Part shown: positions 5,286 to 43,234 of the stretch, in pieces
Position numbering within the stretch: position 1 is the first letter of the stretch
Layout of the letters: each line of letters begins with the position of its first letter
Source of the DNA: Bacilli bacterium
GTDB taxonomy: Bacteria; Bacillota_I; Bacilli_A; RF39; UBA660
NCBI GenBank assembly: GCA_017406955.1
Contig: JAFQXM010000007.1
Span: 80,729 to 144,728 of the forward strand
Direction: 5' to 3'
Length of the DNA stretch: 64,000 bases
Made by a program: the position numbers and the translations under genes
The notes under the pieces: model-generated
What the model saw: only the letters and a program-made list of their open reading frames with translations
What the model was told of the DNA's origin: nothing
Database searches by the model: none

Positions 5286-6350
5286 ATGATAGATAGATTA
5301 GAAACTACATTAAATAAGTATAATGAATTACAAAATGAGTTAACTAAACCAGAAGTTTTAGGTGATATTAAAAAAACAAGAGAGTATTCTAAAGAAATAG
5401 CGGAAATAGAAGATATTGTCACTTGCTATAAAAGATATAAAAAAGTATTAGAAGATATAGAAAACACTAAAGAAATGACTAAAGATCCAGAAATAGGAGA
5501 AATGGCTAAAGAAGAATTAAAGGATCTAGAAGAAGAAAAAGAAAAACTAGATAAAGAATTAGAAATACTTCTAATACCTAAAGATCCCAACGATAGTAAG
5601 AATATTATTATGGAAATAAGAGGAGCTGCTGGTGGAGATGAAGCTAATATTTTCGCAGGAGATTTATTTAGAATGTATACAAGATATGCAGAAAAACAAG
5701 GGTTTTCATATCAAGTATATAACTCAGTAGATGGTACTGCCGGAGGATTTTCTCAAATAGAGTTTATTGTTAAAGGAACAGGAGCTTATTCTCTTTTAAA
5801 ATATGAAAGTGGATCTCATAGAGTACAAAGAGTACCAGTAACAGAATCAAATGGAAGACTACAAACTTCTACGGCTACAGTCCTAGTAATGCCAGAGGCA
5901 GATGATGATGTAGATTTAGAAATAGATCCAAATGACTTAAGAATAGATGTTTATAGATCAAGTGGTAAAGGAGGACAAGGAGTAAATACAACAGATTCAG
6001 CAGTTAGAATTACTCATTTACCTACAAATACAGTAGTAACTTGTCAAAATGAAAGAAGTCAAATCCAAAACAAAGAACAGGCCATGAAAGTATTAAAATC
6101 ATTATTATATGAACAACAAGAACAAGAAAGATTAGAAAAAGAGGGAAACGAAAGACGTAGTAAAATAGGTACAGGAGATAGAGCAGAAAAAATAAGAACT
6201 TATAACTATCCACAAAATAGAGTAACCGATCATAGAATAAGTTTTACTACAAAGAACCTAGATAGAGTAATGGATGGAGATTTAGATGATATAATAAATG
6301 CTTTAATCCAAGAAGATCAAAAAAGGAAACTTGCAGGTCAAGAAGAGTAA
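5286..6350 (+). CDS. prfA: Peptide chain release factor 1
   Basis: GGQ motif (GGQGVNTTDSAVRITHLPT). RF1-specific PxT (PVT). Followed by prmC. Confidence 0.9.
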   Translation: MIDRLETTLNKYNELQNELTKPEVLGDIKKTREYSKEIAEIEDIVTCYKRYKKVLEDIENTKEMTKDPEIGEMAKEELKDLEEEKEKLDKELEILLIPKDPNDSKNIIMEIRGAAGGDEANIFAGDLFRMYTRYAEKQGFSYQVYNSVDGTAGGFSQIEFIVKGTGAYSLLKYESGSHRVQRVPVTESNGRLQTSTATVLVMPEADDDVDLEIDPNDLRIDVYRSSGKGGQGVNTTDSAVRITHLPTNTVVTCQNERSQIQNKEQAMKVLKSLLYEQQEQERLEKEGNERRSKIGTGDRAEKIRTYNYPQNRVTDHRISFTTKNLDRVMDGDLDDIINALIQEDQKRKLAGQEE

Positions 6351-6351
6351 T

Positions 6352-7176
6352 ATGAAAGTAGAAGAATTAATAGTATATGGAAAAGAATATATTCACTCTG
6401 ATTATGTAAAAATGTTACTAGGAGATATTTTAAATTTAAATCCCTTAGAACTACTAAATCATCTAGATGAATATGTAGATGAAGACAAAGTGAAACTCTT
6501 CAAAGAAGAGATGAAAAGTCTAAAAGAAGGTAAACCTATACAATATGTATTAGGTCATGTAAATTTCTTTGGCAATAAGTTTTATGTTAACAAAAATGTA
6601 TTGATACCACGTTTTGAGACAGAAGAGTTAGTTGAAAAAACCATAGAATATATAAATAAATATTTTAATAGACCTATAGATATAATAGACTTGGGTTGTG
6701 GAAGTGGAGTAATCGGACTTACTTTAGAAAAAAAAGTTTCCACAAAATCTGTGGATTTAATAGATATAAGTAAAGAAGCGTTGGAAGTAACAAAAGAAAA
6801 TATAAAGAACTTAAAATCTAAAGCTAACACTATAGAAAGCAATTTCTTTGAAAATGTAGATAAAAAATATGATCTAATAATAAGTAATCCACCATACATA
6901 AAAACTAATGAAGAAATAGAAGTTATTGTAAAAGAAAACGAACCACATTTAGCTTTATACGCTGGAGTTGATGGCCTAGATTGCTATAAAAAGATAATAG
7001 AAAATATAAAACCTCATATGAAAGATAGATGTATAATAGCTTTTGAAATAGGTTGTGACCAAACAGAAGATATTAAAAAATTAATAAACAAATACTTAGA
7101 TGATGTAAGAATAGAGGTAAAAAAAGATCTATCTAATAGAGATAGAATGATATTTATATTTAAAAATATTGAATAA
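6352..7176 (+). CDS. prmC: Release factor glutamine N5-methyltransferase
   Basis: NPPY motif (ISNPPYIK). SAM-binding DLGCGSG. Start placed at the ATG 1 nt after the prfA stop; the track ORF starts 21 nt earlier, inside prfA. Confidence 0.85.
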   Translation: MKVEELIVYGKEYIHSDYVKMLLGDILNLNPLELLNHLDEYVDEDKVKLFKEEMKSLKEGKPIQYVLGHVNFFGNKFYVNKNVLIPRFETEELVEKTIEYINKYFNRPIDIIDLGCGSGVIGLTLEKKVSTKSVDLIDISKEALEVTKENIKNLKSKANTIESNFFENVDKKYDLIISNPPYIKTNEEIEVIVKENEPHLALYAGVDGLDCYKKIIENIKPHMKDRCIIAFEIGCDQTEDIKKLINKYLDDVRIEVKKDLSNRDRMIFIFKNIE

Positions 7177-8214: not shown

Positions 8215-8736
8215 ATGAAAAAAACTATTATAATACTAGCAATCATAATAATGATTTTATCTTTAAATAAAGAAGAAAAGGTAATAATACCTAAAAAGTC
8301 TATTAGATTTAGAGTAATTGCAGATAGTAACAATAAAAAAGATCAAGATATAAAAAAAGAAGTAGTAAGTGGTTTAAAAAATAAAATATCAAGATTAGAT
8401 TTTTCTAACAATTTAAATGATAATAGAAAAATGATAAAAGAACAAATACCAGAATTTAAACAAGTAGTAGAGGATACATTAGCTAAAAATAATTATAATA
8501 AACAATATAATATAAAATATGGTATGAACTATTTCCCAGAAAAAGAATATAAAGGAACAATTTATAAAGAAGGAGAATACGAGTCATTAGTAATTACTTT
8601 AGGAGATGGATTAGGTAGAAACTTTTGGTGCGTATTATTTCCACCATTATGTTTATTAGAAGCGGAAGATACTAAAGAAGTAGATAAAGTAGAATATAAA
8701 TCATTTATAAAAGAAGTAATAGATAAGTATTTTTAA
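8215..8736 (+). CDS. spoIIR: Stage II sporulation protein R
   Basis: Signal/TM N-terminus. SpoIIR signature IRFRVIADSNNKKDQDIK (family consensus IRLHVIANSDS..DQ.LK). Conserved C-terminal NFWCVLFPPLC. Confidence 0.65.
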   Translation: MKKTIIILAIIIMILSLNKEEKVIIPKKSIRFRVIADSNNKKDQDIKKEVVSGLKNKISRLDFSNNLNDNRKMIKEQIPEFKQVVEDTLAKNNYNKQYNIKYGMNYFPEKEYKGTIYKEGEYESLVITLGDGLGRNFWCVLFPPLCLLEAEDTKEVDKVEYKSFIKEVIDKYF

Positions 8737-13204: not shown

Positions 13205-13870
13205 TTGGTTAAAACTTATAATGAGGTGAATAAAATGAAAAGAAAAAAATTAAAGTCTTATGTGTTGCCTAGTTTATTGATGATGTTAATTGCAGGAACA
13301 ATTCTTTTAACTGCCATAACAACATCATTAAATAAAAATAATGAAGAAGATACTTCTACATATGTATCAAGAATTATCTTAGAACCAGATGTTGCGGTAA
13401 TTAATGATTCTAGAAAAGTAATTAATCCATATACAGATTCATCAGTAACAATAGGTAAAAGCTATTATGATTATAAGGCAGATGCTAAAGATCAAGAGAA
13501 ATCAATTATCTATCATGATAATACGTATATGCAGAACTCTGGAATTGATTTTGTAAACAAAAATACTTTTGATGTAGTATCAGTACTAGATGGCACAGTA
13601 ACAGATGTAAAAGAAGATGAAACATTAGGTAAAATAGTAGAAATAAAACATGATAATGACTATATTAGTATTTACCAAAGTCTATCAGAAGTAAATGTAA
13701 AAAAAGGAGATAAAGTAACACAAGGACAAGTACTTGGAAAGAGTGGAAATAATGAATTAGATAAAGAAATGGGAAATCACTTACATTTTGAATTTTATGT
13801 AAATGGACAAGTAGTAAATCCAAGTCTTTATCTTGATAAAGAGCTAAAAAGTGATAAAACAAAAGAGTAA
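13205..13870 (+). CDS. Membrane-anchored M23 (LytM) family peptidase; SpoIIQ-like by context
   Basis: N-terminal TM. C-terminal M23 motif HLHFEFYVNGQVVNP. Sits immediately upstream of mreB/mbl, as spoIIQ does in clostridia. A hairpin terminator follows. Confidence 0.55.
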   Translation: MVKTYNEVNKMKRKKLKSYVLPSLLMMLIAGTILLTAITTSLNKNNEEDTSTYVSRIILEPDVAVINDSRKVINPYTDSSVTIGKSYYDYKADAKDQEKSIIYHDNTYMQNSGIDFVNKNTFDVVSVLDGTVTDVKEDETLGKIVEIKHDNDYISIYQSLSEVNVKKGDKVTQGQVLGKSGNNELDKEMGNHLHFEFYVNGQVVNPSLYLDKELKSDKTKE

Positions 13871-15028: not shown

Positions 15029-16132
15029 ATGAAAGAACAAATACTAGATGCTAGTAAGATAGTATTAGTTACATTTTTAGTTTCAGCTTTAATTATGCCA
15101 TTAATGAAAAGAGTAGCTATTCATGTAGGAGCAATAGATGTTCCTAGAAAAAAAGAAAATAGTAGACATATACATACAAAAACAACTCCATTATTAGGAG
15201 CAGTAGGAATATTTTTAGCATTCCTAGTAGGATATATGTTATTTGGAGAACAAAGTGTAAGAATGAATTCCATTTTAATTGGTAGTTTTATAATAATACT
15301 TACAGGAATAGTAGATGATATTAAACCTATAAAAGCACATCAAAAAGTAGTAGGACACTTAGCAGCAGCAGCAGTTATAGTGTTCTATGGAAAAATATTA
15401 CTAAATAATATAACAGTTTTTGGATTCTCATTTGATTTTGGTTCTTTATCACCAATAATCACTATATTATTCATAGTAGCTTGTACTAATATTATAAATT
15501 TAATAGATGGATTAGATGGACTAAGTGGCGGAATTTGTTCTATATTCTTCTTAACTATTGGAATTATAGGCTTTTGCCAAGGAAGATCAGGAAGTCTAGT
15601 TATGATTTTAACTTTTATAATGTTAGGATCAACTTTAGGTTTCTTATTACACAACTTTTATCCCGCTAAAATATTTGCTGGAGATTGTGCTACATTCTTA
15701 GGATTTATAATAGCAGTAATAACATTATTAGAGTTTAAAGGAGCTGCACTAACATCATTCTTTGTACCAGTAATGATATTAGGTATACCAATATTAGATA
15801 CATTATTCGCAATTATAAGAAGACTATTAAAAGGTCAAGATCCATTTAAAGGAGATAGAAAACATCTTCATCATCAATTATTAGGAATGAACTTCTCACA
15901 GAGAACAACAGTATTAATTATATATGGAATAAATACATTATTTGCTTTATCATCAATATTTTATACATTAAAAGATCAATTAATAGGTGAAATACTATAT
16001 ATAATTATATTTATAATAGTATTATGGTTTGTACTACACACAACTATAATTTCAGATAAAACCCCAAAAAGAACAAAAAAAATAAGAGAAAAATTATCAA
16101 TAAGAAAGAAAAGAAAAAATACTAAAAAATAG
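15029..16132 (+). CDS. tagO: Glycosyltransferase family 4 (MraY/WecA/TagO-like undecaprenyl-phosphate N-acetylhexosamine-1-phosphate transferase)
   Basis: Eleven-TM topology. NLIDGLDGL motif. Cytoplasmic loop DCATFLGF. Confidence 0.75.
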   Translation: MKEQILDASKIVLVTFLVSALIMPLMKRVAIHVGAIDVPRKKENSRHIHTKTTPLLGAVGIFLAFLVGYMLFGEQSVRMNSILIGSFIIILTGIVDDIKPIKAHQKVVGHLAAAAVIVFYGKILLNNITVFGFSFDFGSLSPIITILFIVACTNIINLIDGLDGLSGGICSIFFLTIGIIGFCQGRSGSLVMILTFIMLGSTLGFLLHNFYPAKIFAGDCATFLGFIIAVITLLEFKGAALTSFFVPVMILGIPILDTLFAIIRRLLKGQDPFKGDRKHLHHQLLGMNFSQRTTVLIIYGINTLFALSSIFYTLKDQLIGEILYIIIFIIVLWFVLHTTIISDKTPKRTKKIREKLSIRKKRKNTKK

Positions 16133-16201
16133 TATTTTTTTTATAATATATATTTAAAAAATGGAAAAATATGGTAAAATTATAATCGTGCAGGTGATTA
16201 T

Positions 16202-16933
16202 ATGATAAATTTTATAGTATGTGAAGATATAAAAGAGTTATCTAATAAATATAAACAAGAAATAGATAAATTCATGATGAAATATGATATAGATTATAAG
16301 TGTCATATGTATACAGATTATGGTAAAGAATGGCAAAGTATTGCTAAAAAGGAAATGGGATTTAAAATATATTTACTTGATATAGTAACCAAAAATGGTT
16401 CAGGATTAGATGCCGCAAGACTAATAAGAGAAGAATATGATGATTGGTCATCTATGATTATTATAATAACTTCATATCCGGAATATAAATATGAAGCACT
16501 AGGTAAAAGACTAATGTTAGTAGACTTTATAAGTAAAGTAGATAATTGTGAGAAAAAACTTCAAGATGCTTTCTTAATATGTATGAAAAATTATGATAAG
16601 AAATATAAGAGTCTAAAATATACTTATAAAAATACAGTTTATAACTTAGAATTTAGAAATATAATTTCTATTGAAAAAGAACAAGATAGTAAAAGATGTT
16701 TAATAAAAACAATCCATGGTAATTATTATATTCCAGGAAGTCTAAATCAAGTATTAAAGAAATTAGATAAAAGATTCTTTAAATGTCACAGAAGTATGGC
16801 AGTAAATATTAATCAAATAGAAAGATATAACCAAAAGAAGAATACAATATATTTTAAAAATGAAACTAAATCAACATTAGTTGCACGAAACAAAAAGAAG
16901 GAGTTGATGGATCGTGTTAGAAGTCTTAACTAA
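16202..16933 (+). CDS. agrA: AgrA-like two-component response regulator with a LytTR DNA-binding domain
   Basis: Receiver-domain landmarks: CED, LLDI (phospho-Asp), IIIITSYPEY, K. C-terminal LytTR domain (IYFKNETKSTLVARNK). Adjacent to the kinase and to agrBD. Confidence 0.7.
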   Translation: MINFIVCEDIKELSNKYKQEIDKFMMKYDIDYKCHMYTDYGKEWQSIAKKEMGFKIYLLDIVTKNGSGLDAARLIREEYDDWSSMIIIITSYPEYKYEALGKRLMLVDFISKVDNCEKKLQDAFLICMKNYDKKYKSLKYTYKNTVYNLEFRNIISIEKEQDSKRCLIKTIHGNYYIPGSLNQVLKKLDKRFFKCHRSMAVNINQIERYNQKKNTIYFKNETKSTLVARNKKKELMDRVRSLN

Positions 16934-18212
16934 ATTAATTTGTTTTATTTTGATGAGTGTAGTAGGTTTTTATATAATAAGGATAATTATAAATAGCAAG
17001 GAAAAAATCACCAGTATAAAAAACATATTATTATTAACAATCCCAACTATAATACCTTTCTTTTTGTATAAAATCCAATATACAGGATTATATACGTTGA
17101 TAACATATTTAATAAATATATTTATATACAAATATATATTTAAAGAAAAAATTATAGAGAGTATTATTTCGACCAGTTTATTAATGATAATTTTATTCTT
17201 ATCAGATGTAATCAATTCTTTAATATATGTGCCTTTCTTTCAAATAAGTGATATACGAGGAATATGGTATCTAAGATTAATAGGAAATATAACTTTATCT
17301 CTTATTTGCGTTGGTTTTTTAGAAATTAAGCAATTTAGAAATTTAATTCAAAAAATATATAAAAAGCTATCTACTAGAAGATACAGAACAAGTATATTGT
17401 TTGTTGTCTTGATTATTTCAGTTTTTACAATAATAGAGTATAATTTTGCAATTAAATTTAAATTGGGTTCAGAGTTTTTTATTAATATATTTTTAGTAAT
17501 AATATTTACTTTTTTAATGTCTCTTTTTATAAGGGAAAAAGATAATAATGATAGATTGGCAAGCGAATATGATAATTTATTTAATTATATTCAAAACTTT
17601 GAAGATTGGATTGAAAAAGAACAATTAAATAGACACGAATATAAAAATCAATTAGCGGTTCTTAGGGATATAACAAAAGAAAAGACTACAAGAGCTAAAA
17701 TTGATGAAATATTAGAGGATAATATTAATTTAGAAGGGGAAGTACTTAATCAACTTAAGACATTACCTAAAGGTGGTATAAAGGGTTTAATGTACTATAA
17801 ACTAGTAATTGCTCAAAAAAATAAAATTGATCTTACTGTAGACGTTAGTATAAAGAGAAAATCAATTTTAAATAAATTGTCAGAAAAGCAAATAAGAGAT
17901 TTATGTAAATTAATAGGAATATATTTTGATAATGCTATTGAAGCGGCCAGTGAAACTAGAAAGAAGAGAGTTTTGGTTGAAGTATATGAATTAAAGGATA
18001 AGGTTAATATAGTGTTTTCTAATACATTTAAGAAAAACAATAATTTCGATAATAGAAACAAAAAAGGTGTTTCTTCAAAAGGAGATGGACACGGAAATGG
18101 ATTATATTTTGCTAAAAAGTTAATTTCAAAAAATGAATGGTTAAAAGAGAAACAAGAGATAATAGATGGTTATTACATAGAGCAATTAAGTATATTAAAA
18201 CTAGAGAAATAA
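16914..18212 (+). CDS. agrC: AgrC-like membrane sensor histidine kinase (HPK10 / GHKL)
   Basis: Polytopic N-terminus with 6-7 TM helices. H-box NRHEYKNQLAVLRDI. C-terminal ATPase G-box GDGHGNGLYFAKKLI. Overlaps the response-regulator stop by 20 nt. Confidence 0.7.
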   Translation: MLEVLTKLICFILMSVVGFYIIRIIINSKEKITSIKNILLLTIPTIIPFFLYKIQYTGLYTLITYLINIFIYKYIFKEKIIESIISTSLLMIILFLSDVINSLIYVPFFQISDIRGIWYLRLIGNITLSLICVGFLEIKQFRNLIQKIYKKLSTRRYRTSILFVVLIISVFTIIEYNFAIKFKLGSEFFINIFLVIIFTFLMSLFIREKDNNDRLASEYDNLFNYIQNFEDWIEKEQLNRHEYKNQLAVLRDITKEKTTRAKIDEILEDNINLEGEVLNQLKTLPKGGIKGLMYYKLVIAQKNKIDLTVDVSIKRKSILNKLSEKQIRDLCKLIGIYFDNAIEAASETRKKRVLVEVYELKDKVNIVFSNTFKKNNNFDNRNKKGVSSKGDGHGNGLYFAKKLISKNEWLKEKQEIIDGYYIEQLSILKLEK

Positions 18213-18225
18213 AAAGCTCTAGTTT

Positions 18226-18345
18226 TTAGTCATTAAATAAGTTGTTTGCTTTTGGTTCGTCAATTAACCACCAAACACATCCTACACTTGCAGCAGTAGT
18301 AGCTAACATAGCAACAGCTGCAAAAATTCCAGCTAATCTTTTCAC
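18226..18345 (-). CDS. agrD: AgrD autoinducing-peptide precursor (39 aa; below the ORF-track cutoff)
   Basis: Minus-strand GGAGGG-N6-GTG start. Translation is MKRLAGIFAAVAMLATTAASVGCVWWLIDEPKANNLFND. It has an amphipathic leader, then Cys followed by 4 residues (CVWWL), then the conserved acidic tail with EP, as in clostridial AgrD. It lies 43 nt downstream of agrB. Confidence 0.6.
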   Translation of the reverse strand: MKRLAGIFAAVAMLATTAASVGCVWWLIDEPKANNLFND

Positions 18346-18388
18346 TCTCTTCCCTCCTTTTATTCTATATTGCTAAATACTTCAGTAT

Positions 18389-18988
18389 TTATGCCGTGTT
18401 TAAATTTTTATAATTATTATATGGTTGTCCAAATAATCTATAAGTTAATGGGTTAATTACAATTACTTCAATAATTAAACTTGATAATATAAGTGATGTT
18501 AAATAATTGTTTTTAAATACTATTATTAATATAGTAAATATAATTCCAATAAGAGTAGTTAATATTTTTCTAATTACTCTTTTTCTTTTGTTTGGAAGAG
18601 GTCTTTTTATTGTATCTGCAGGTGCAAATAATAAATAATTAAATATGCAAATTATAGAAATAATAATTTTTAATTCAAATGAAATATTAATTTTCAAAAA
18701 CAATAATGGAATACAAATAAAATTAATTATTGAAGATATTAAACATTGGTAACTCTTTTCAGCGTGAAATCCAAAACCTGTATATCTAATAATATTAAAT
18801 AAAATAATAACAATAATGACTTCTTTAAGTATTCCTAATAATATAGCTAAAAGTATAATAACTATTGTCTTAGTCACAGTTAAATATAATCCTTCTAAAC
18901 CATATTTAAGCTTTTCTATATCTTTTTTAGAGTATTTCTTATATTTAGTGATAAAATTTATACTTTTATCTAAAAACCATTTTTTCAT
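18389..18988 (-). CDS. agrB: AgrB, the AgrD-processing membrane peptidase
   Basis: Conserved catalytic His/Cys region NIIRYTGFGFHAEKSYQCLISS (family R.Y.GG.HA.....C..S). Multiple TM helices. Start placed at MKKWFLDK with a GGAGGG SD; the track ORF extends 132 nt upstream. Confidence 0.75.
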   Translation of the reverse strand: MKKWFLDKSINFITKYKKYSKKDIEKLKYGLEGLYLTVTKTIVIILLAILLGILKEVIIVIILFNIIRYTGFGFHAEKSYQCLISSIINFICIPLLFLKINISFELKIIISIICIFNYLLFAPADTIKRPLPNKRKRVIRKILTTLIGIIFTILIIVFKNNYLTSLILSSLIIEVIVINPLTYRLFGQPYNNYKNLNTA

Positions 18989-19211
18989 ATACCCTCCATA
19001 TTCACCTAGACTATAGCACTCAAACTTATCTAAAAAATAATATTTCCTTAAAAAGAATAATAGAAAATAGTTGTGTCGAATTTTGTCGAAAACAAAAGTA
19101 AAATTACCAAAAAATACCAAAAGTAATACATATTATGGAATTTGCATTTACGAGTTTTATAATTTGCTAGAATTAATTTACCAGATAGGTAGAAGGAGAG
19201 GTGTGAGAAGT

Positions 19212-19433
19212 ATGATGTTTGGACACGTAAAGTGGTTCAATAATGAAAAAGGATACGGCTTTATAGAGTACAAGACAGATGAAGATGTCTTTGTTCATTA
19301 CTCAGCTATTGATATTGACGGCTATAAAACACTATCCGAAGGGCAGTTGGTAGAATTTAAGTTGGTTGAAACTAGCAAAGGGTATCAAGCTTTAAATGTG
19401 AAATTAGTAAAAGAAACTGCTGACATTAAGTAG
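19212..19433 (+). CDS. csp: Cold-shock protein (CspA family)
   Basis: [23 protein letters not shown]1-like KGYGFI and VFVHYSAI. Start placed at the internal ATG after the GGAGAGG SD; the track ORF has a spurious N-terminal extension. Confidence 0.85.
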
Positions 19434-19471
19434 TAGGTTGTGCTATACTAAACATATAAGGAGATGATATT

Positions 19472-19999
19472 ATGGAAATTATTATTCATGGGGATAAGAT
19501 CAAAGTTACTGATGCTATGAAGGAGTATATTAAAGAAAAATTACAGAAGCTAGACAAGTATCTAGAAAATAGTGATAATGTAAGAGCTAATGTCATAGTA
19601 AAAGTAAAGAATTATACTCAAAGAGTAGAAATTACCATACCGCTAAAAACATTTATTTTAAGATCAGAAGAACAACAAGAAGATTTCTATGCAGCTGTTG
19701 ATAAAACAATTGATAAGTTAGAAAGACAAATAAGAAAGAATAAGACAAAAATGATGTCTAAACATGTTAAAGTTAGTCAAGATTTCAATTTTGCTTCTTT
19801 TGATTCAGACGAAGATGATGAAAAGAAAATCGTTAAGAGAAAGAAAGTAGAAGTAAAACCAATGAATGAAGAAGAGGCTATAATTCAAATGGAACTTTTA
19901 GGTCATCAATTTTATATGTATAAAGATAGCGAAACTAATAAACCTGCTGTAGTATACAAAAGAAAAGACGAACATTATGGAATAATTGAGTCTGAATAA
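19472..19999 (+). CDS. hpf: Ribosome hibernation-promoting factor, long form
   Basis: S30AE N-terminus MEIIIHGDKIKVTDAMKEYIKEKL. C-terminal dimerisation domain. Located upstream of secA, as in other Firmicutes. Confidence 0.85.
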   Translation: MEIIIHGDKIKVTDAMKEYIKEKLQKLDKYLENSDNVRANVIVKVKNYTQRVEITIPLKTFILRSEEQQEDFYAAVDKTIDKLERQIRKNKTKMMSKHVKVSQDFNFASFDSDEDDEKKIVKRKKVEVKPMNEEEAIIQMELLGHQFYMYKDSETNKPAVVYKRKDEHYGIIESE

Positions 20000-22859: not shown

Positions 22860-24776
22860 GTGATATTCTTGGAAAAAAGCAATCTTTTAAAAGATAATAA
22901 AGAACTAATGAAGTATTGGGACTATGAGAAAAATAAAGATTTAAATTTAGATAAGCTAACACTTGGAAGCAGTAAAATTGCATGGTGGAAATGTGATAAA
23001 GGCCATTCGTATGATGCAAAAATAAAAAGGAAAAATTATGAAAAAATAATATGCCCCATTTGTTCTAATCATAGAGTACTAAAAGGATATAATGATTTAG
23101 CGACAACTAATCCTGAATTATTAAAGGAATGGGACTTTACCAAAAATACTATTTCGCCATATGAGATAACAGCTGGTGCGGAAAAAATGATATGGTGGAT
23201 TTGTCCTAAAGAGCATTCATACCAATCATATGCTTTTAACCGTAAAAGAGGAGTTGGATGTCCAATTTGTGATGGTAAGAAAGTATTAATTGGATATAAT
23301 GATTTAGCAACAACAAATCCTAAAATTGTAAAAGAATGGGACTATGAAAAAAATAGAAATCTTAAACCAACTGACATTACAGAAGGAAGCGCTATAAATG
23401 TTTGGTGGAAATGCGATAAAGGCCATTCGTATGATGCAAGAGTGAAAGATAGAAAACGAGGATTAAATTGTCCATTCTGTTCAAATAAAAAAGTATTAGT
23501 CGGTTTTAATGATTTATATACATATTGTATTAATAATCATCTTGAAGAAATAATAGAAGAATTTGATAATGATAAAAACAAATTTTCAATGAAAGACGTT
23601 ACAGCAGGTAGTGATAAAGAAACATGGTGGAAATGTCCAAAGGGGCATTCATACCAGTCTAGTCCATCCAGAAGAGTTATGAGAGGATCTGGCTGTGGGA
23701 TTTGTAGCCATAATATTCTAGTAAAAGGTGTAAATGATTTACTAACCACACACCCTGAAATAGCAAAAGAATGGGATTATAAAAAGAATAAAGTTGGTCC
23801 AGATGAAGTAATGGCCGGAAGCAATATAGATAAATACTGGTTTATTTGTCCAAAAGGCCATAGTTACCATACCACTGTCTTAGGTAGAAAAAGAGGAACT
23901 AACTGTCCACAGTGTAACATAGAAAAGCATACATCAATTCCAGAAAGATCAATTTATTATTACATGAAAAAATATTTTGTTGATGTAGTTGATAGTTATC
24001 ATAGTAAAAAAATCGGAAGAAAAGAAATTGATATATTTTTGCCAGCATTTAACTTTGGGATAGAGTATGATGGTAGAGCTTGGCATAAAAATTATAAAAG
24101 AGATATAGAAAAAGATAACCTTTGTTTAAAAAATGATATTACGTTATTTAGAGTAAGGGAAATAGGTTGCTTCGAATATGATAGTAGTTCAATAAAAAAA
24201 TATATAAATCCATATGATATAAAAGAATTAAATGAAGCAATTAAATCTATTTTTGATTATATAAATAAAAAATATAAACAAAACATTAGTGTAGATATAG
24301 ATATTGAAAGAGATAAAATCAAAATTCTTGAATTAATGAACTTATCCGAAAAAGAAAATTCAATTGCTAAGTATTGTCCAAGTATTAAAAAATATTGGGA
24401 CTCAACTAAAAATGGATTGATTACTCCTGAACAAATTTCACACGGAAGTATGAAAAAAGTATTTCTAAAATGTGAAAAAGGCCATGAGTGGGATAAAATT
24501 GTAAGTAATATTAGAAAAGAAATAAAATGTCCATTTTGTTTTGGAAGAAAAGTACTACCTGGATTTAACGATTTGGCAACTACTCATCCTGAAATATCAA
24601 AAGAATGGAATTATGAAAAGAATGGAGATCTTAAACCAACAGACATTAAAGCAGGAAGTAATAAAAATGTATGGTGGAAGTGTGAAAGAGGTCATGAATG
24701 GCAAGCTGTTATAAATATAAGAACTAACGGATATAGAAAATGTTCAATTTGTTCGAAATCATTGACAGTGAGATAA
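22860..24776 (+). CDS. Multi-repeat zinc-ribbon (zf-trcl-like) protein with a central Vsr/DUF559-like PD-(D/E)xK nuclease-fold domain
   Basis: Seven repeats of about 48 aa, each K(E/Y)WDYEKN...WWKC(D/P)KGH(S/E)Y...R......CP(I/F)C (five N-terminal, two C-terminal). The central domain has FGIEYDGRAWH...ITLFRVRE. GTG start per the track; an alternative ATG (MKYWDYEKN) lies 54 nt downstream. Confidence 0.6.
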   Translation: MIFLEKSNLLKDNKELMKYWDYEKNKDLNLDKLTLGSSKIAWWKCDKGHSYDAKIKRKNYEKIICPICSNHRVLKGYNDLATTNPELLKEWDFTKNTISPYEITAGAEKMIWWICPKEHSYQSYAFNRKRGVGCPICDGKKVLIGYNDLATTNPKIVKEWDYEKNRNLKPTDITEGSAINVWWKCDKGHSYDARVKDRKRGLNCPFCSNKKVLVGFNDLYTYCINNHLEEIIEEFDNDKNKFSMKDVTAGSDKETWWKCPKGHSYQSSPSRRVMRGSGCGICSHNILVKGVNDLLTTHPEIAKEWDYKKNKVGPDEVMAGSNIDKYWFICPKGHSYHTTVLGRKRGTNCPQCNIEKHTSIPERSIYYYMKKYFVDVVDSYHSKKIGRKEIDIFLPAFNFGIEYDGRAWHKNYKRDIEKDNLCLKNDITLFRVREIGCFEYDSSSIKKYINPYDIKELNEAIKSIFDYINKKYKQNISVDIDIERDKIKILELMNLSEKENSIAKYCPSIKKYWDSTKNGLITPEQISHGSMKKVFLKCEKGHEWDKIVSNIRKEIKCPFCFGRKVLPGFNDLATTHPEISKEWNYEKNGDLKPTDIKAGSNKNVWWKCERGHEWQAVINIRTNGYRKCSICSKSLTVR

Positions 24777-40340: not shown

Positions 40341-40447
40341 TTAACATAAGTAGACACTTTCCAAATAAAGGTAAGAAAAGTTAATTTAGTTACCTTTTTT
40401 TTTGTCGAAAAATATGGTATACTTATTTATACTAGTGGAGGTATTAT

Positions 40448-41143
40448 ATGGACTTAATTAACTTAAAAAATGTAGAGAAAAAATACAAAAATGGAGTTAC
40501 TGCTATATATGATTTGAGTATATCTCTAAAGAAAGGATCCTTTACTTTTGTTATAGGTGGATCAGGTAGTGGTAAATCTACATTAATTAAGATGTTATAT
40601 AGAGAAGAAAAGCCTACTAAGGGACAAATAAATGTAGGTGGTCTTAATGTTGCTAAATTAAGAAATAAAAAAGTATATAAATTAAGAAGAAAATTAGGAA
40701 TAGTTTTTCAAGATTATAGATTATTGCCAAAGCAAACAGTATATGAAAATGTAGCCTTTGCCATGGAAGTAATTGGAGCTAAAAAAGATGTTATTAGGAA
40801 GAAAGTATTAAGAGCATTAGAAGAAGTAGGATTAAAAAACAAAATACATAATTATCCAGATCAATTATCAGGAGGAGAACAACAAAGAGTTGCAATTGCT
40901 AGAGCGATTGTTAATGATCCTAAATTATTACTATGTGATGAGCCTACTGGTAACTTAGATCCTGAACGTAGTATGGAAATTATGAAAGTATTAGAAGATA
41001 TAAATAAGTCAAGAGGTACTACAATAATTATGGCTACACATGATAAAGATATTGTTAATAGAATGAAAAAGCAAGTTATTACTCTAAAAGATGGACACCT
41101 AGTAGAGTTTAAGAAAAAGGGGGTATATAATGAAATTGTTTAG
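40448..41143 (+). CDS. ftsE: Cell division ATP-binding protein FtsE
   Basis: Walker A GGSGSGKST. ABC signature LSGGEQQRVAIARA. Confidence 0.9.
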   Translation: MDLINLKNVEKKYKNGVTAIYDLSISLKKGSFTFVIGGSGSGKSTLIKMLYREEKPTKGQINVGGLNVAKLRNKKVYKLRRKLGIVFQDYRLLPKQTVYENVAFAMEVIGAKKDVIRKKVLRALEEVGLKNKIHNYPDQLSGGEQQRVAIARAIVNDPKLLLCDEPTGNLDPERSMEIMKVLEDINKSRGTTIIMATHDKDIVNRMKKQVITLKDGHLVEFKKKGVYNEIV

Positions 41144-42029
41144 AATGCTAAAAAGGAGTATAAGAGATGCATTTAAAAGTGCTATAAGAAATTTTAGTTT
41201 ATCACTAGCTTCAATTTCTTGTATTACAATCACTTTAATAATAGTAGCAATTGCTATTATGGCATCACTAAATGTACAAAATTTCACTAAAGTAATAGAA
41301 AAAGACTTAACTATTGTAGTATTTTTAGATAATGAAGCAACTCCAGAAGATGCAGAGTTAGTAAAAAAAGAAATAAAAAATAATTCTAATGTTGAAAGTT
41401 ATACATTCAAATCAAAAGATGAAGTAAAAAAACAAATGCAAGAAGAGTCAGATGTATTTAATACAGTATTAGATGGTTGGGAAGGAAAAGAAAGTCCTTT
41501 AAAAGATACTTTTCAAGTAAAAGTAAAAAAAGTAGAAGATATAGCTAAAACAGCTAATAAAATAAAAGGTATTGAACATGTATCAGTAGTAAGATATGGA
41601 GAAGGAATGGTTGATAAAATGGTAAGTGCATTTTCTTCAATAGAAAAAGCTACTTATATTGTTGTAATAGCATTAGTAGTTGTAACAGTATTCTTAATTA
41701 TTAATACTATTAAATTAACTATTTCTGCAAGAAGAAGAGAAATTAGTATTATGAGATTAGTTGGAGCTAGTAACTTTACAATAAAAACACCTTTTATTAT
41801 TGAGGGAATGATTTTAGGATTATTTGGATCAATTGTACCAGTAATATTTACAACATATGGTTATTTAGCTTTTTATAATCACTTTGATGGACATTTATTC
41901 TCAGATTTAATAAGACTAATAAAACCAGAACCATTTATTTATAATACTTCAGTAGTAGTAGTTATAATTGGTATATTAGTAGGTATGGTTGGTAGTGCCG
42001 GTGCTGTAAGGAAGTATTTGAAGATATGA
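41130..42029 (+). CDS. ftsX: Cell division permease FtsX
   Basis: Four-TM topology with a large extracellular loop. Overlaps ftsE. Confidence 0.85.
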   Translation: MKLFRMLKRSIRDAFKSAIRNFSLSLASISCITITLIIVAIAIMASLNVQNFTKVIEKDLTIVVFLDNEATPEDAELVKKEIKNNSNVESYTFKSKDEVKKQMQEESDVFNTVLDGWEGKESPLKDTFQVKVKKVEDIAKTANKIKGIEHVSVVRYGEGMVDKMVSAFSSIEKATYIVVIALVVVTVFLIINTIKLTISARRREISIMRLVGASNFTIKTPFIIEGMILGLFGSIVPVIFTTYGYLAFYNHFDGHLFSDLIRLIKPEPFIYNTSVVVVIIGILVGMVGSAGAVRKYLKI

Positions 42030-43234
42030 TGAAGAAAGTAGTAGTAATAGTTATAGTTTTATCGCTTATAGTATCTTATACAATACTACCTATAGATACT
42101 AGTGCTAAAACTATAAGAGAATTTGAAGCAGAAGTTGCTAAATATACTTCTGAGTTAGAAGCTAAAAAGAATAAAGTAGCTAAAAATGATAAAGAAGTAG
42201 CAACTATTAAAGAAAAAATAAAAAGTATCGAAGGTCAAATAACAAAAGCAGAACAGGATATTAAAAACTTACAAAAAGAAATAGATGAAAGTAATAAAAA
42301 AATAAAAGAAAAGAAAGCAGAAAGTAAAAAGATAATGGAATATTATCAAATATCTAATGGAGAAAATGTTTATTTAGAATATGCTTTTGGGGCTACAAGT
42401 ATTACTGATATGATATATAGAATGTCAGTAGTGGAACAATTAACTGAATATAATGATAAAGTAATGAAAGAACTTGATCAGTTAATCAAAAGGAATGAAC
42501 AGAGTCAAAAAAATCTAGCATCTAAAAAAGAAGAATTAGGAAAACTAAAGAAAGATCTTAATAGTGAAAAAGAAAAAATAAATGCTGATACAGCTTCATT
42601 AAAAGCGGCTATGCCAGGTTTAGAAGAACAAATAAAAGCAGCTAAACAACAAATCCAAGATTTAAAGAGAATGGGTTGTGGAACTAATGAATCAGTACAA
42701 AGTTGTACAGCTAGATACTATGCAAGATTTGTACCACAAGCATCAAGCGGAAGCTATAGTGGTGGAGGAGGAGCAATTTCTACACCAAGTGCTAATGGTT
42801 TCTATAGACCAATAGAATACGGATATTTAACTCAAGGATATAGAGGATCAGCTCATATGGGAGTAGATATCTCAAGTAGTAACAAAACAATTACAATATA
42901 TCCGATAGCTTCTGGACAGGTAAGTGCTAAATACTATGACTATTATGGAGCCCTAGTATTAAAGATTAGACATAATGTTGGAGGTAGAATTATTTATTCA
43001 ACTTATGCTCATCTTAGTAGTTGGTCAGTTAGTGTAGGACAAAATGTAAGTGCTGCTACACCAATTGGAAGAATGGGTAGTACTGGATATTCAACAGGTC
43101 CACATCTTCACTTAGAAGTAACTTCTTGTGATTGGAAATCTGCAGGTGGTGGTTGTACTTGGGCACAATATCAAAGAAGTACTATGAATCCTGCTAGTTA
43201 TGTATCATTCCCAAGTAGTTGGAGTAACAGATAA
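42026..43234 (+). CDS. Coiled-coil M23 peptidoglycan hydrolase, FtsEX-associated (PcsB/CwlO/EnvC-like)
   Basis: Signal peptide, long coiled coil, and C-terminal M23 domain (GPHLHLEV). Confidence 0.8.
   Translation: MMKKVVVIVIVLSLIVSYTILPIDTSAKTIREFEAEVAKYTSELEAKKNKVAKNDKEVATIKEKIKSIEGQITKAEQDIKNLQKEIDESNKKIKEKKAESKKIMEYYQISNGENVYLEYAFGATSITDMIYRMSVVEQLTEYNDKVMKELDQLIKRNEQSQKNLASKKEELGKLKKDLNSEKEKINADTASLKAAMPGLEEQIKAAKQQIQDLKRMGCGTNESVQSCTARYYARFVPQASSGSYSGGGGAISTPSANGFYRPIEYGYLTQGYRGSAHMGVDISSSNKTITIYPIASGQVSAKYYDYYGALVLKIRHNVGGRIIYSTYAHLSSWSVSVGQNVSAATPIGRMGSTGYSTGPHLHLEVTSCDWKSAGGGCTWAQYQRSTMNPASYVSFPSSWSNR

Follow-up and report, generated by a model that had tools for sequence, protein, structure and literature searches.

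A predicted agr-type peptide quorum-sensing locus of two convergent operons in an uncultured gut bacterium of the order RF39

Overall organization of the agr locus

The window analyzed here is a 64-kb stretch of DNA (64,000 nucleotides of contig JAFQXM010000007.1) from an uncultured Bacilli bacterium of the GTDB order RF39, and it carries an agr-type locus for peptide quorum sensing. On the + strand, agrA (16202-16933) encodes a 243-residue response regulator composed of a receiver and a LytTR DNA-binding domain, and agrC (16914-18212, GTG start), which overlaps agrA by 20 nucleotides (nt), encodes a 432-residue AgrC-type (HPK10) membrane histidine kinase. Converging on this pair from the - strand, agrB (18389-18988) encodes a 199-residue protein predicted to be the membrane cysteine endopeptidase/cyclase that processes AgrD, and agrD (18226-18345, GTG start), which begins 43 nt after the agrB stop codon on the same strand, encodes a peptide of 39 residues. 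The stop codons of agrC and agrD are separated by 13 nt. The initial annotation of this DNA had proposed a convergent agr-type quorum-sensing locus, and the proposal is borne out by family models, structure matches, and synteny in 41 related genomes; its sequence statements, namely the open reading frames (ORFs), the peptide, the GGAGGG-N6-GTG start, and the 43-nt gap, all hold on re-reading. Judged from the sequence, this is a genuine agr-type peptide quorum-sensing locus, including the tiny gene for the signal precursor.

The AgrD precursor and its predicted ring

The direct translation of agrD is MKRLAGIFAAVAMLATTAASVGCVWWLIDEPKANNLFND, which is divided into a hydrophobic leader (residues 1-22), the ring Cys23, a variable core (V24-I28), and a tail (D29-D39) through which AgrB would recognize it. 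A ribosome-binding site, GGAGGG, is read at 18352-18357 (- strand), 6 nt before the GTG codon. The peptide scores 21.0 bits over residues 2-32 on the NCBIfam model TIGR04223 (quorum_AgrD), above the cut-off of 19, and thus belongs to that family. Furthermore, it combines the position of a small ORF next to agrB with an invariant Cys, a variable core, and an acidic, Pro-containing tail. The leader is uniformly hydrophobic and signal-peptide-like, with a mean Kyte-Doolittle value of 1.83, and not amphipathic as first described. Residues 1-23 (18280-18345, - strand) fit the formal lipoprotein signal pattern of K/R, a hydrophobic stretch, and A-S-V-G-C, and automated lipoprotein predictors would probably miscall the window AgrD and related AgrDs.

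A scan for AgrB, with one genome per species, yielded 41 related loci, all from uncultured gut bacteria named "Bacilli", "Tenericutes" or "Mycoplasma sp. CAG:877". An ORF of 37-41 residues lies 40-65 nt after agrB in 41 of the 41 related loci. With the Cys as anchor of the alignment, 41 of 42 orthologues conform to the pattern leader-(A)AS-x-G-C-x5-[DE]-E-P-x-[AS]-x3-[FLM], with Cys, Glu, and Pro invariant in 41/41 aligned peptides. The five residues after the Cys have entropies of 2.9, 1.5, 2.8, 2.6, and 3.1 bits and occur in 40 distinct versions among these 41 peptides; Trp dominates core position +2, and no column of the peptide varies more than position +5 (Ile28), at 3.08 bits. F37 is situated in a conserved hydrophobic column (Phe in 23, Leu in 15, and Met in 3). 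A homologue search with the 40-residue AgrD orthologue of locus L001 as query returned 35 further metagenome homologues with the same C-x5-[DE]EP pattern. One metagenomic homologue, P0040 (MKKRLSQLLMAVAMLATGMASVGCEWWINLFKD), is without the x-D-E-P-x-S segment, which could reflect a loss-of-function allele occurring in nature or faulty assembly.

In the case of S. aureus, the ring Cys of AgrD is Cys28, and AgrB frees a 14-residue C-terminal fragment by cutting between M32 and D33; D33 adjoins the cut, and D33, E34, and L41 matter for processing, with E34 and L41 being essential (PMC10482373). A gapless alignment pairs C23, the junction of I28 and D29, E30, and F37 of the window peptide with Cys28, the junction of M32 and D33, E34, and L41, respectively. 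As this match puts the cut before Asp29, and as position +5 is the most variable, the thiolactone ring is predicted to be CVWWLI, with six residues, in preference to CVWWL, an assignment that we consider somewhat the more probable. The autoinducing peptide (AIP) of C. acetobutylicum is likewise a six-residue ring, [CVLVTL] (PMC12312760).

The initial annotation had instead predicted the five-residue ring CVWWL, which would require AgrB to cut between Leu27 and Ile28 and would leave Ile28 in the discarded tail. In the Listeria and C. perfringens precursors, a non-acidic residue (Y or H) does stand between the ring and the E-P/P-x-x-P region. Five-residue rings are by far the commonest among characterized AIPs (table in PMC12312760). 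A smaller though substantial share of the probability goes to this ring. However, the 3.08 bits at position +5 fit a residue of the signal that contacts the receptor better than one recognized by AgrB, and the gapless correspondence of D29-E30...F37 with D33-E34...L41 places the cut before the Asp; CVWWL is therefore probably not the mature ring. The choice of CVWWLI is tempered by two points, namely that ring size is derived from alignment logic and that the spacing is not absolutely fixed: the AgrD of locus L040, the only such orthologue, has six residues between Cys and DEP (C-TLWWYL-DEP), and ring size may vary within the clade. In agreement with the remark that CVWWL does not resemble the well-known staphylococcal AIPs, no ring sequence of the clade matches any characterized AIP (table in PMC12312760). 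A quite different origin of the 39-residue ORF, as a tiny lipoprotein or secreted peptide matured by the general lipoprotein pathway at A-S-V-G-C and not by AgrB, is suggested by the uniformly hydrophobic leader with its N-terminal K-R and lipobox-like motif ahead of the Cys, and by a score of 18 bits on the NCBIfam lipoprotein signal model NF038029. This score falls short of the model's cut-off of 24, while the peptide exceeds that of the AgrD model; the ORF always lies directly downstream of agrB; the invariant [DE]-E-P tail and hypervariable core are typical of AgrD and would serve no purpose in a lipoprotein, whose mature part would comprise only 17 residues. Such an origin is very improbable, and the peptide is taken as a substrate of AgrB.

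The processing enzyme, the kinase, and the response regulator

The mechanically defined agrB ORF runs to a TTG codon at 19120 (18389-19120), but the start used by gene callers and NCBI is the ATG at 18988, which has a GGAGGG ribosome-binding site. The search with Pfam AgrB (PF04647) that had been proposed as a check gives a match of 1.7e-30 (106.2 bits against a gathering threshold of 23) spanning model positions 2-183 of 185, and NCBIfam PRK01100 matches at 3.8e-31. Residues R68, G73, H75, C82, P123, and K128 are invariant in 42 sequences, and the catalytic motif noted initially thus contains an invariant His/Cys dyad. H75 and C82 align with the catalytic H77 and C84 of S. aureus AgrB; the His77/Cys84 dyad is described in PMC10482373. 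A comparison of AgrB with solved structures gave no meaningful match.

AgrC consists of a sensor of about residues 1-205, for which hydropathy over residues 1-208 indicates at least six hydrophobic spans, and a kinase half that holds the phospho-acceptor His241. Its assignment to the HPK10 kinases, another check proposed initially, is supported by a match to Pfam HATPase_c_5 (3.7e-10) and by the best PDB match, the kinase module of S. aureus AgrC (3.8e-10), in which RHDYVNIL corresponds to RHEYKNQL of the window. H241, N340, G394, and G396 are invariant in 34 orthologues. The protein thereby unites a polytopic sensor, an H-box His, and a GHKL ATPase of the HATPase_c_5 type, as in AgrC-type kinases.

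AgrA matches Pfam LytTR at 7.2e-17, and its best solved-structure matches are to the LytTR domain of AgrA from S. aureus (1.5e-8). The receiver profile is weak (21 bits against 30.2). Across 33 orthologues, D9, D60, and K112 never change and T/S90 is retained, so that the AgrA-type arrangement of a receiver with phospho-acceptor Asp and a C-terminal LytTR domain is present.

Control regions of the two operons

Upstream of agrA, a promoter element (TGGAAAAATATGGTAAAAT, 16162-16180, + strand) contains the extended -10 sequence TATGgTAAAAT and a TGGAA repeat 10 nt upstream. Nearly all related loci share TGGAAAA-N3-TGGTAAAAT at this place, a strong extended -10, which suggests that agrAC has a strong promoter of its own. 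The motif TGGWA-N5-TGGTAA has exactly two matches in the 64-kb window, one before agrA and the other before agrB, where 0.06 are expected by chance. A sigma-54 reading of the TGG-N8-TGG motif was rejected, the spacing being 10 and not 12.

Three blocks ahead of agrB hold the same register from locus to locus: AAATTCCnTAATnTGT, TTTTTTGGTAAT, and TTTTCGACAAAATTCGACA. The outermost, AAATTCCATAATATGTATT (AAATTCCnTAATnTGT; 19125-19143, - strand), lies in the control region shared by agrB and csp, a cold-shock gene that diverges from agrB at a distance of 223 nt, and it keeps its register also in distant loci without 0A boxes (the Spo0A-binding motif described below). On the other strand of this block, the related loci read (C)CAnTTAAGGAA, which resembles a LytTR half-site; the version in locus L007 is CCAGTTAAGG, set against the S. 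aureus AgrA site consensus, which we take to be ACAGTTAAG. Because csp shares this control region, the block could serve either gene. The second block, TGGTATTTTTTGGTAA (19104-19119, - strand), contains TTTTTTGGTAAT, is in fixed register with the 0A boxes, and would be a site for a regulator or else a further, distal promoter with an extended -10. A candidate proximal agrBD promoter with the extended -10 TGcTATAGT is read at 19010-19018 (- strand), and a -10-like hexamer, counted by eye, lies at a constant 58-59 nt downstream of the 0A boxes in loci L001, L002, and L011. No significant further copies of the upstream block AATTCCnTAATnTGTA occur in the window. Positions 19144-19211 (+ strand), ahead of csp, form a conserved leader with a CTACC...GGTAG stem.

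Known LytTR regulators bind 9-bp repeats about 21 bp apart. No convincing pair of 9-bp direct repeats with this spacing (12-13-bp spacer), as in AgrA boxes, was found upstream of agrB or agrA, and autoinduction of agrBD by AgrA is therefore an assumption, which detracts from the proposed circuit. An RNAIII-type divergent effector RNA was not found either, and there is no room for such a gene beside csp; an Rfam scan of 15800-19600 returned no family except a weak cspA match inside the csp gene. RNAIII is absent from the clostridial and Listeria agr systems too.

Between the convergent stop codons, a hairpin, AAAACTAGAG-N10-CTCTAGTTTT, occupies 18197-18226 on both strands. Its left arm is formed by the last agrC codons, and the agrC stop codon lies within the loop. 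The bidirectional hairpin had been placed initially at 18200-18226; its presence stands, whereas its extent is wider. On the - strand, the 61-nt segment 18180-18240 containing it folds at -9.4 kcal/mol (z = -2.3; 5 of 200 shuffles fold as well), and on the + strand it forms in a 66-nt segment at -10.5 kcal/mol (z = -1.1). As the hairpin has only three G-C pairs and a 10-nt loop, a consensus terminator scan over 15900-19500 called nothing, a result that speaks for a weak hairpin. However, A-tract/stem/U-tract hairpins of differing sequence follow agrD directly in about 31 of 40 related loci, which supports its reading as a two-way transcription terminator, likely a weak one, between the operons. 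In locus L014, an IS3-family transposase gene (5857-6947, two overlapping frames) is inserted between agrD and agrC at the position of this hairpin, and L003 likewise has about 1.35 kb of extra DNA.

Candidate tandem Spo0A boxes upstream of agrB

The third conserved block (TTTTCGACAAAATTCGACA) contains the repeat TGTCGAA-TTT-TGTCGAA (19074-19090, + strand; TTCGACAAAATTCGACA on the agrB strand), located 86-102 nt upstream of the agrB ATG. The arrangement of two head-to-tail heptamers with a 3-bp spacer and 10-bp period is the tandem Spo0A layout of abrB and of the Spo0A-DNA crystal structure. Both heptamers are perfect 0A-box cores, and the tandem site is the only one in the 64 kb, where 0.11 would be expected even with two mismatches allowed. 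The perfect tandem site exists in the window and in 19 related loci, once in each and always upstream of agrB, and at least one 0A box is kept in fixed register in 28 of 42 sequences. The core TGTCGAA is recognized by Spo0A of Bacillus and Clostridioides, usually within about 100 bp of the start codon (PMC3485338), and the consensus box upstream of agrB lies within about this distance, as in members of the Spo0A regulon. CodY-box and cre readings of the repeat were rejected for too many mismatches. The only other TGTCGAA of the window is found at 40403-40409 (+ strand), in TTTTTGTCGAAAAATATGGTATACT, immediately before an extended -10 and an operon of ftsE, ftsX, and an M23 hydrolase gene (40448-43234).

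The window also encodes SpoIIR (8215-8736, + strand; 1.9e-38 on TIGR02837) and a SpoIIQ-like M23 protein (13205-13870, + strand; 9.3e-51 on NF053738) directly upstream of the mreB/mbl gene, both below the equivalog cut-offs. These genes bear on the disputed question of whether RF39 sporulates: RF39 genomes, including CAG-877, have been predicted to be able to sporulate (PMC10868615), whereas a machine-learning study scored cattle RF39 genomes as non-sporulating (PMC12536801). In several clostridia, agr controls sporulation. Taken with these observations, the unique, perfect, and conserved tandem site, whose motif is that of PMC3485338, makes it conceivable that agrBD transcription also receives a putative direct Spo0A input, a proposal to which we give slightly less than an even chance. 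Against such an input stand the non-sporulating score, the 14 of 42 loci without an intact box, and a tblastn search of the window and the related loci only, with a B. subtilis query, in which Spo0A was not found.

Conservation and divergence across related loci

The order mbl-tagO (a TagO/WecA-like transferase)-agrA-agrC, converging on agrD-agrB and followed by csp-hpf-secA, is identical wherever the contig is long enough; agr is part of the vertically inherited core of the clade rather than a mobile island. The initial annotation would have been undermined had the small ORF, its synteny, and its Cys position been poorly conserved in relatives; all are conserved across the 41 related genomes. 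CAG-877 (Candidatus Faecimonas) belongs to RF39; GTDB releases differ in placing it in family CAG-611 or UBA660. Its genomes are of about 1.4 Mb with 28% G+C. The window itself matches a ruminant-gut assembly, and the samples with these proteins are ruminant gut metagenomes, in which the longest contig with them measures 470,673 bp.

Divergence is concentrated in the ligand and its predicted receptor. Compared with the window, the AgrC sensor (1-205) has a median identity of 33%, the AgrC kinase half 68%, the two AgrA domains 66% and 54%, and SecA 85%. The sensors of L011 and L013, the nearest relatives, reach just 34-38% identity, whereas MreB is 95% identical in both and SecA 96% in L011; their AgrD peptides carry CMWWIL and CVWIMA, respectively. 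In near-identical genome pairs, the flanks share 95-100% DNA identity, while agrD and the sensor part of agrC share 44-56%. The hypervariable module, as it appears from these alignments, is split into two patches because agrC is inverted, and otherwise follows the known pattern of staphylococcal agr groups. Within species, the same agr allele is present in all six to seven contigs with identical HPF or AgrD protein, from few samples. The conservation of the enzymes together with the hypervariability of ligand and sensor is a strong argument that the signal works and is private to each species, and that the locus is no decaying remnant.

A mosaic structure surrounds agr in the closely related genomes L005/L010, as well as L009/L015, L011/L013, and L025/L026. 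Between L005 and L010, identity is 98-100% on the csp-hpf-secA side and drops to about 80% from precisely the agrB start codon onward, which suggests a recombination breakpoint at the agr locus. Within the window, ORFs of at least 110 residues are almost all on the + strand, and agrBD is among the very few - strand units. The gene order of the window (prfA, spoIIR, fba, murA, spoIIQ, mbl ... secA, prfB, ftsEX ... eno, rnr, smpB) is like that of the corresponding B. subtilis region. A 638-residue ORF downstream of secA (22860-24776, + strand) has no NCBIfam match; on related contigs, annotation of the same gene shows only DUF4379 and faint zinc-finger matches.

Interpretation of the locus

We estimate the probability that the locus forms a functional agr-type circuit of two convergent operons, in an uncultured small-genome gut bacterium of the GTDB order RF39, at about 85%. 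Several results lower this estimate. A search of AgrD against all Pfam families (E <= 1) gave no match, and this includes the AgrD family PF05931, which the initial annotation had suggested as a check. The full-length alignment of AgrC to the NCBIfam AgrC equivalog NF046015 reaches 67 bits against a cut-off of 500, and that of AgrA to the AgrA equivalog 58 bits against 400, so that both are distant members of their families and not orthologues of the staphylococcal proteins in the narrow sense. Moreover, we infer every step beyond the identity of the genes. PF05931 is, however, the narrower, effectively staphylococcal model, and TIGR04223 matches the window peptide. The defining features of AgrD (by TIGR04223), AgrB, an AgrC-type kinase, and a LytTR regulator are all present, and only narrow staphylococcal models failed.

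Two further explanations were weighed. That the agr locus is an inactive remnant in a shrinking genome could be argued from the strongly reduced RF39 genomes, from the insertion sequence between agrD and agrC in L014, and from the internal deletion in the AgrD variant P0040; yet none of the four genes is disrupted in the window, the catalytic residues do not vary across 33-42 species, and synteny persists in genomes of about 1.3-1.4 Mb. Diversification of ligand and sensor alongside conserved enzymatic parts requires selection on function, and a remnant is accordingly far from credible. The other explanation concerns the repeat TTCGACA-N3-TTCGACA upstream of agrB, which might be an AgrA autoinduction box, or the site of another regulator binding direct repeats, instead of a Spo0A site. 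It is specific to the agrB promoter, as the sole site in the window and once per locus, and it is lost in exactly those distant loci that have the most diverged AgrA (LytTR identity of 27-56%), as expected if site and regulator co-evolve. Furthermore, an autoinduction site must exist somewhere, no other is identified upstream of agrB or agrA, and the failure to find Spo0A in the window or related loci points the same way. By contrast, both heptamers are perfect copies of the 0A-box core (PMC3485338), and the repeat is absent upstream of agrA. Its 3-bp spacer and 10-bp period are also those of tandem Spo0A sites, unlike the 9-bp repeats of known LytTR regulators. We regard an AgrA or other direct-repeat site as the chief alternative, though a less likely one, and Spo0A remains the favored, if tentative, candidate for this site.

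On the model of S. aureus, AgrB would cut AgrD before Asp29 and pass the acyl group to the thiol of Cys23, closing the thiolactone ring. A separate protease would trim the hydrophobic leader, and a cut after A-A-S would leave a Val-Gly tail, giving the predicted product VG-cyclo(CVWWLI) with [M+H]+ 957.50. The bare ring cyclo-CVWWLI would have [M+H]+ 801.41, and the candidates built on CVWWL 688.33 or 844.42. The exported peptide would bind the hypervariable AgrC sensor, upon which His241 would phosphorylate Asp60 of AgrA, and phosphorylated AgrA would alter transcription, presumably including that of agrBD. With its own ring sequence and a matching, fast-evolving sensor, each species would thus possess a private signal. 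The complete picture, in which RF39 inherits agr vertically, makes species-private, Trp-rich thiolactones with an unusual six-residue ring, and has their production wired to Spo0A through tandem 0A boxes, is doubtful in its entirety.

agr loci are widespread in Firmicutes, and as a gene find this one is routine, since it is already auto-annotated in public records, uncharacterized. NCBI lists AgrA as MBQ2639673.1 (response regulator transcription factor), AgrB as MBQ2639676.1 ("accessory gene regulator B family protein"), and the identical 39-residue peptide as MBQ2639675.1 ("cyclic lactone autoinducer peptide [Bacilli bacterium]"). The initial annotation was thus right about the identity of AgrD, but the peptide that it called unannotated is missing only from an ORF track with a 60-residue cut-off. 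In the literature searched, no description of quorum sensing in RF39 was found. What makes the locus interesting is its context: the retention across the clade, Trp-rich rings that probably have six residues, and the Spo0A boxes. Members of RF39 live in abundance in the guts of humans, ruminants, rabbits, and poultry; none has ever been brought into culture, and their genomes measure about 1.3-1.4 Mb. The four-gene circuit is at the same site in 41 of 41 AgrB-positive related species genomes, nearly each with its own ring sequence. The predicted peptides are short and easily synthesized, and they could serve as growth or sporulation cues for cultivation and as species-specific probes of coordination in reduced bacteria. 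The tandem boxes offer a checkable proposal linking quorum sensing and sporulation outside the model clostridia. If the Spo0A wiring is true, cell-density sensing would be coupled to the sporulation decision, and hence to host-to-host transmission, in a lineage that has never been grown.

Comparison with known agr and Spo0A systems

The locus shares its four components with agrBDCA of S. aureus, and the key residues correspond: H75/C82 of AgrB to H77/C84, H241 of AgrC to H239, and D60 of AgrA to D59. Both systems have an acidic D-E tail after the ring Cys and a hypervariable module of agrD plus the AgrC sensor, with the first half of AgrB varying less than the second; among solved structures, AgrA and AgrC of the window likewise match staphylococcal proteins best. 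However, S. aureus has a single agrBDCA transcript, whereas the window has two convergent operons, no RNAIII-like gene, and a cold-shock gene as the divergent neighbor. The leader of the window AgrD is hydrophobic and signal-peptide-like, its ring probably has six residues, classical AgrA boxes were not found in the window, identity is low, and the scores lie below the NCBIfam equivalog cut-offs.

C. difficile agr2 (agrACDB, R20291) has the S. aureus order reversed, agrA and agrC standing before agrD and agrB as in the window (PMC3754575), and the host is a spore-forming gut anaerobe. This system is accessory and strain-variable, with a Ser-based ring [SSWVA] (PMC12312760), whereas the window has a Cys and a fixed, syntenic core locus.

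Separate agrBD and agrCA operons have already been described in clostridia, so that the split arrangement here is a variation and not a novelty. The initial annotation had described the convergent arrangement as less common than the colinear agrBDCA. In the case of C. acetobutylicum, the two operons are also separate, the six-membered thiolactone ring (predicted for the window) is followed by x-E-P-K, and agr affects sporulation in its host, a spore-forming Firmicute, although sporulation of the window host is disputed. The window differs in that its operons converge, the gene for the regulator comes ahead of that for the kinase, a LanM-like effector gene is absent downstream, and the host is an uncultured Bacilli bacterium with a reduced genome; perfect tandem 0A boxes upstream of C. 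acetobutylicum agrB are not reported in the literature searched.

Compared with known Spo0A promoters such as abrB of B. subtilis, the site upstream of agrB has the same two TGTCGAA heptamers head to tail, the 3-bp spacer, and a location within about 100 bp of the start codon, but its target is the operon of a quorum-sensing signal. As far as its genes and motifs tell, the locus works like the staphylococcal agr system, while its organization and probable ring size are closest to the split-operon systems of clostridia.

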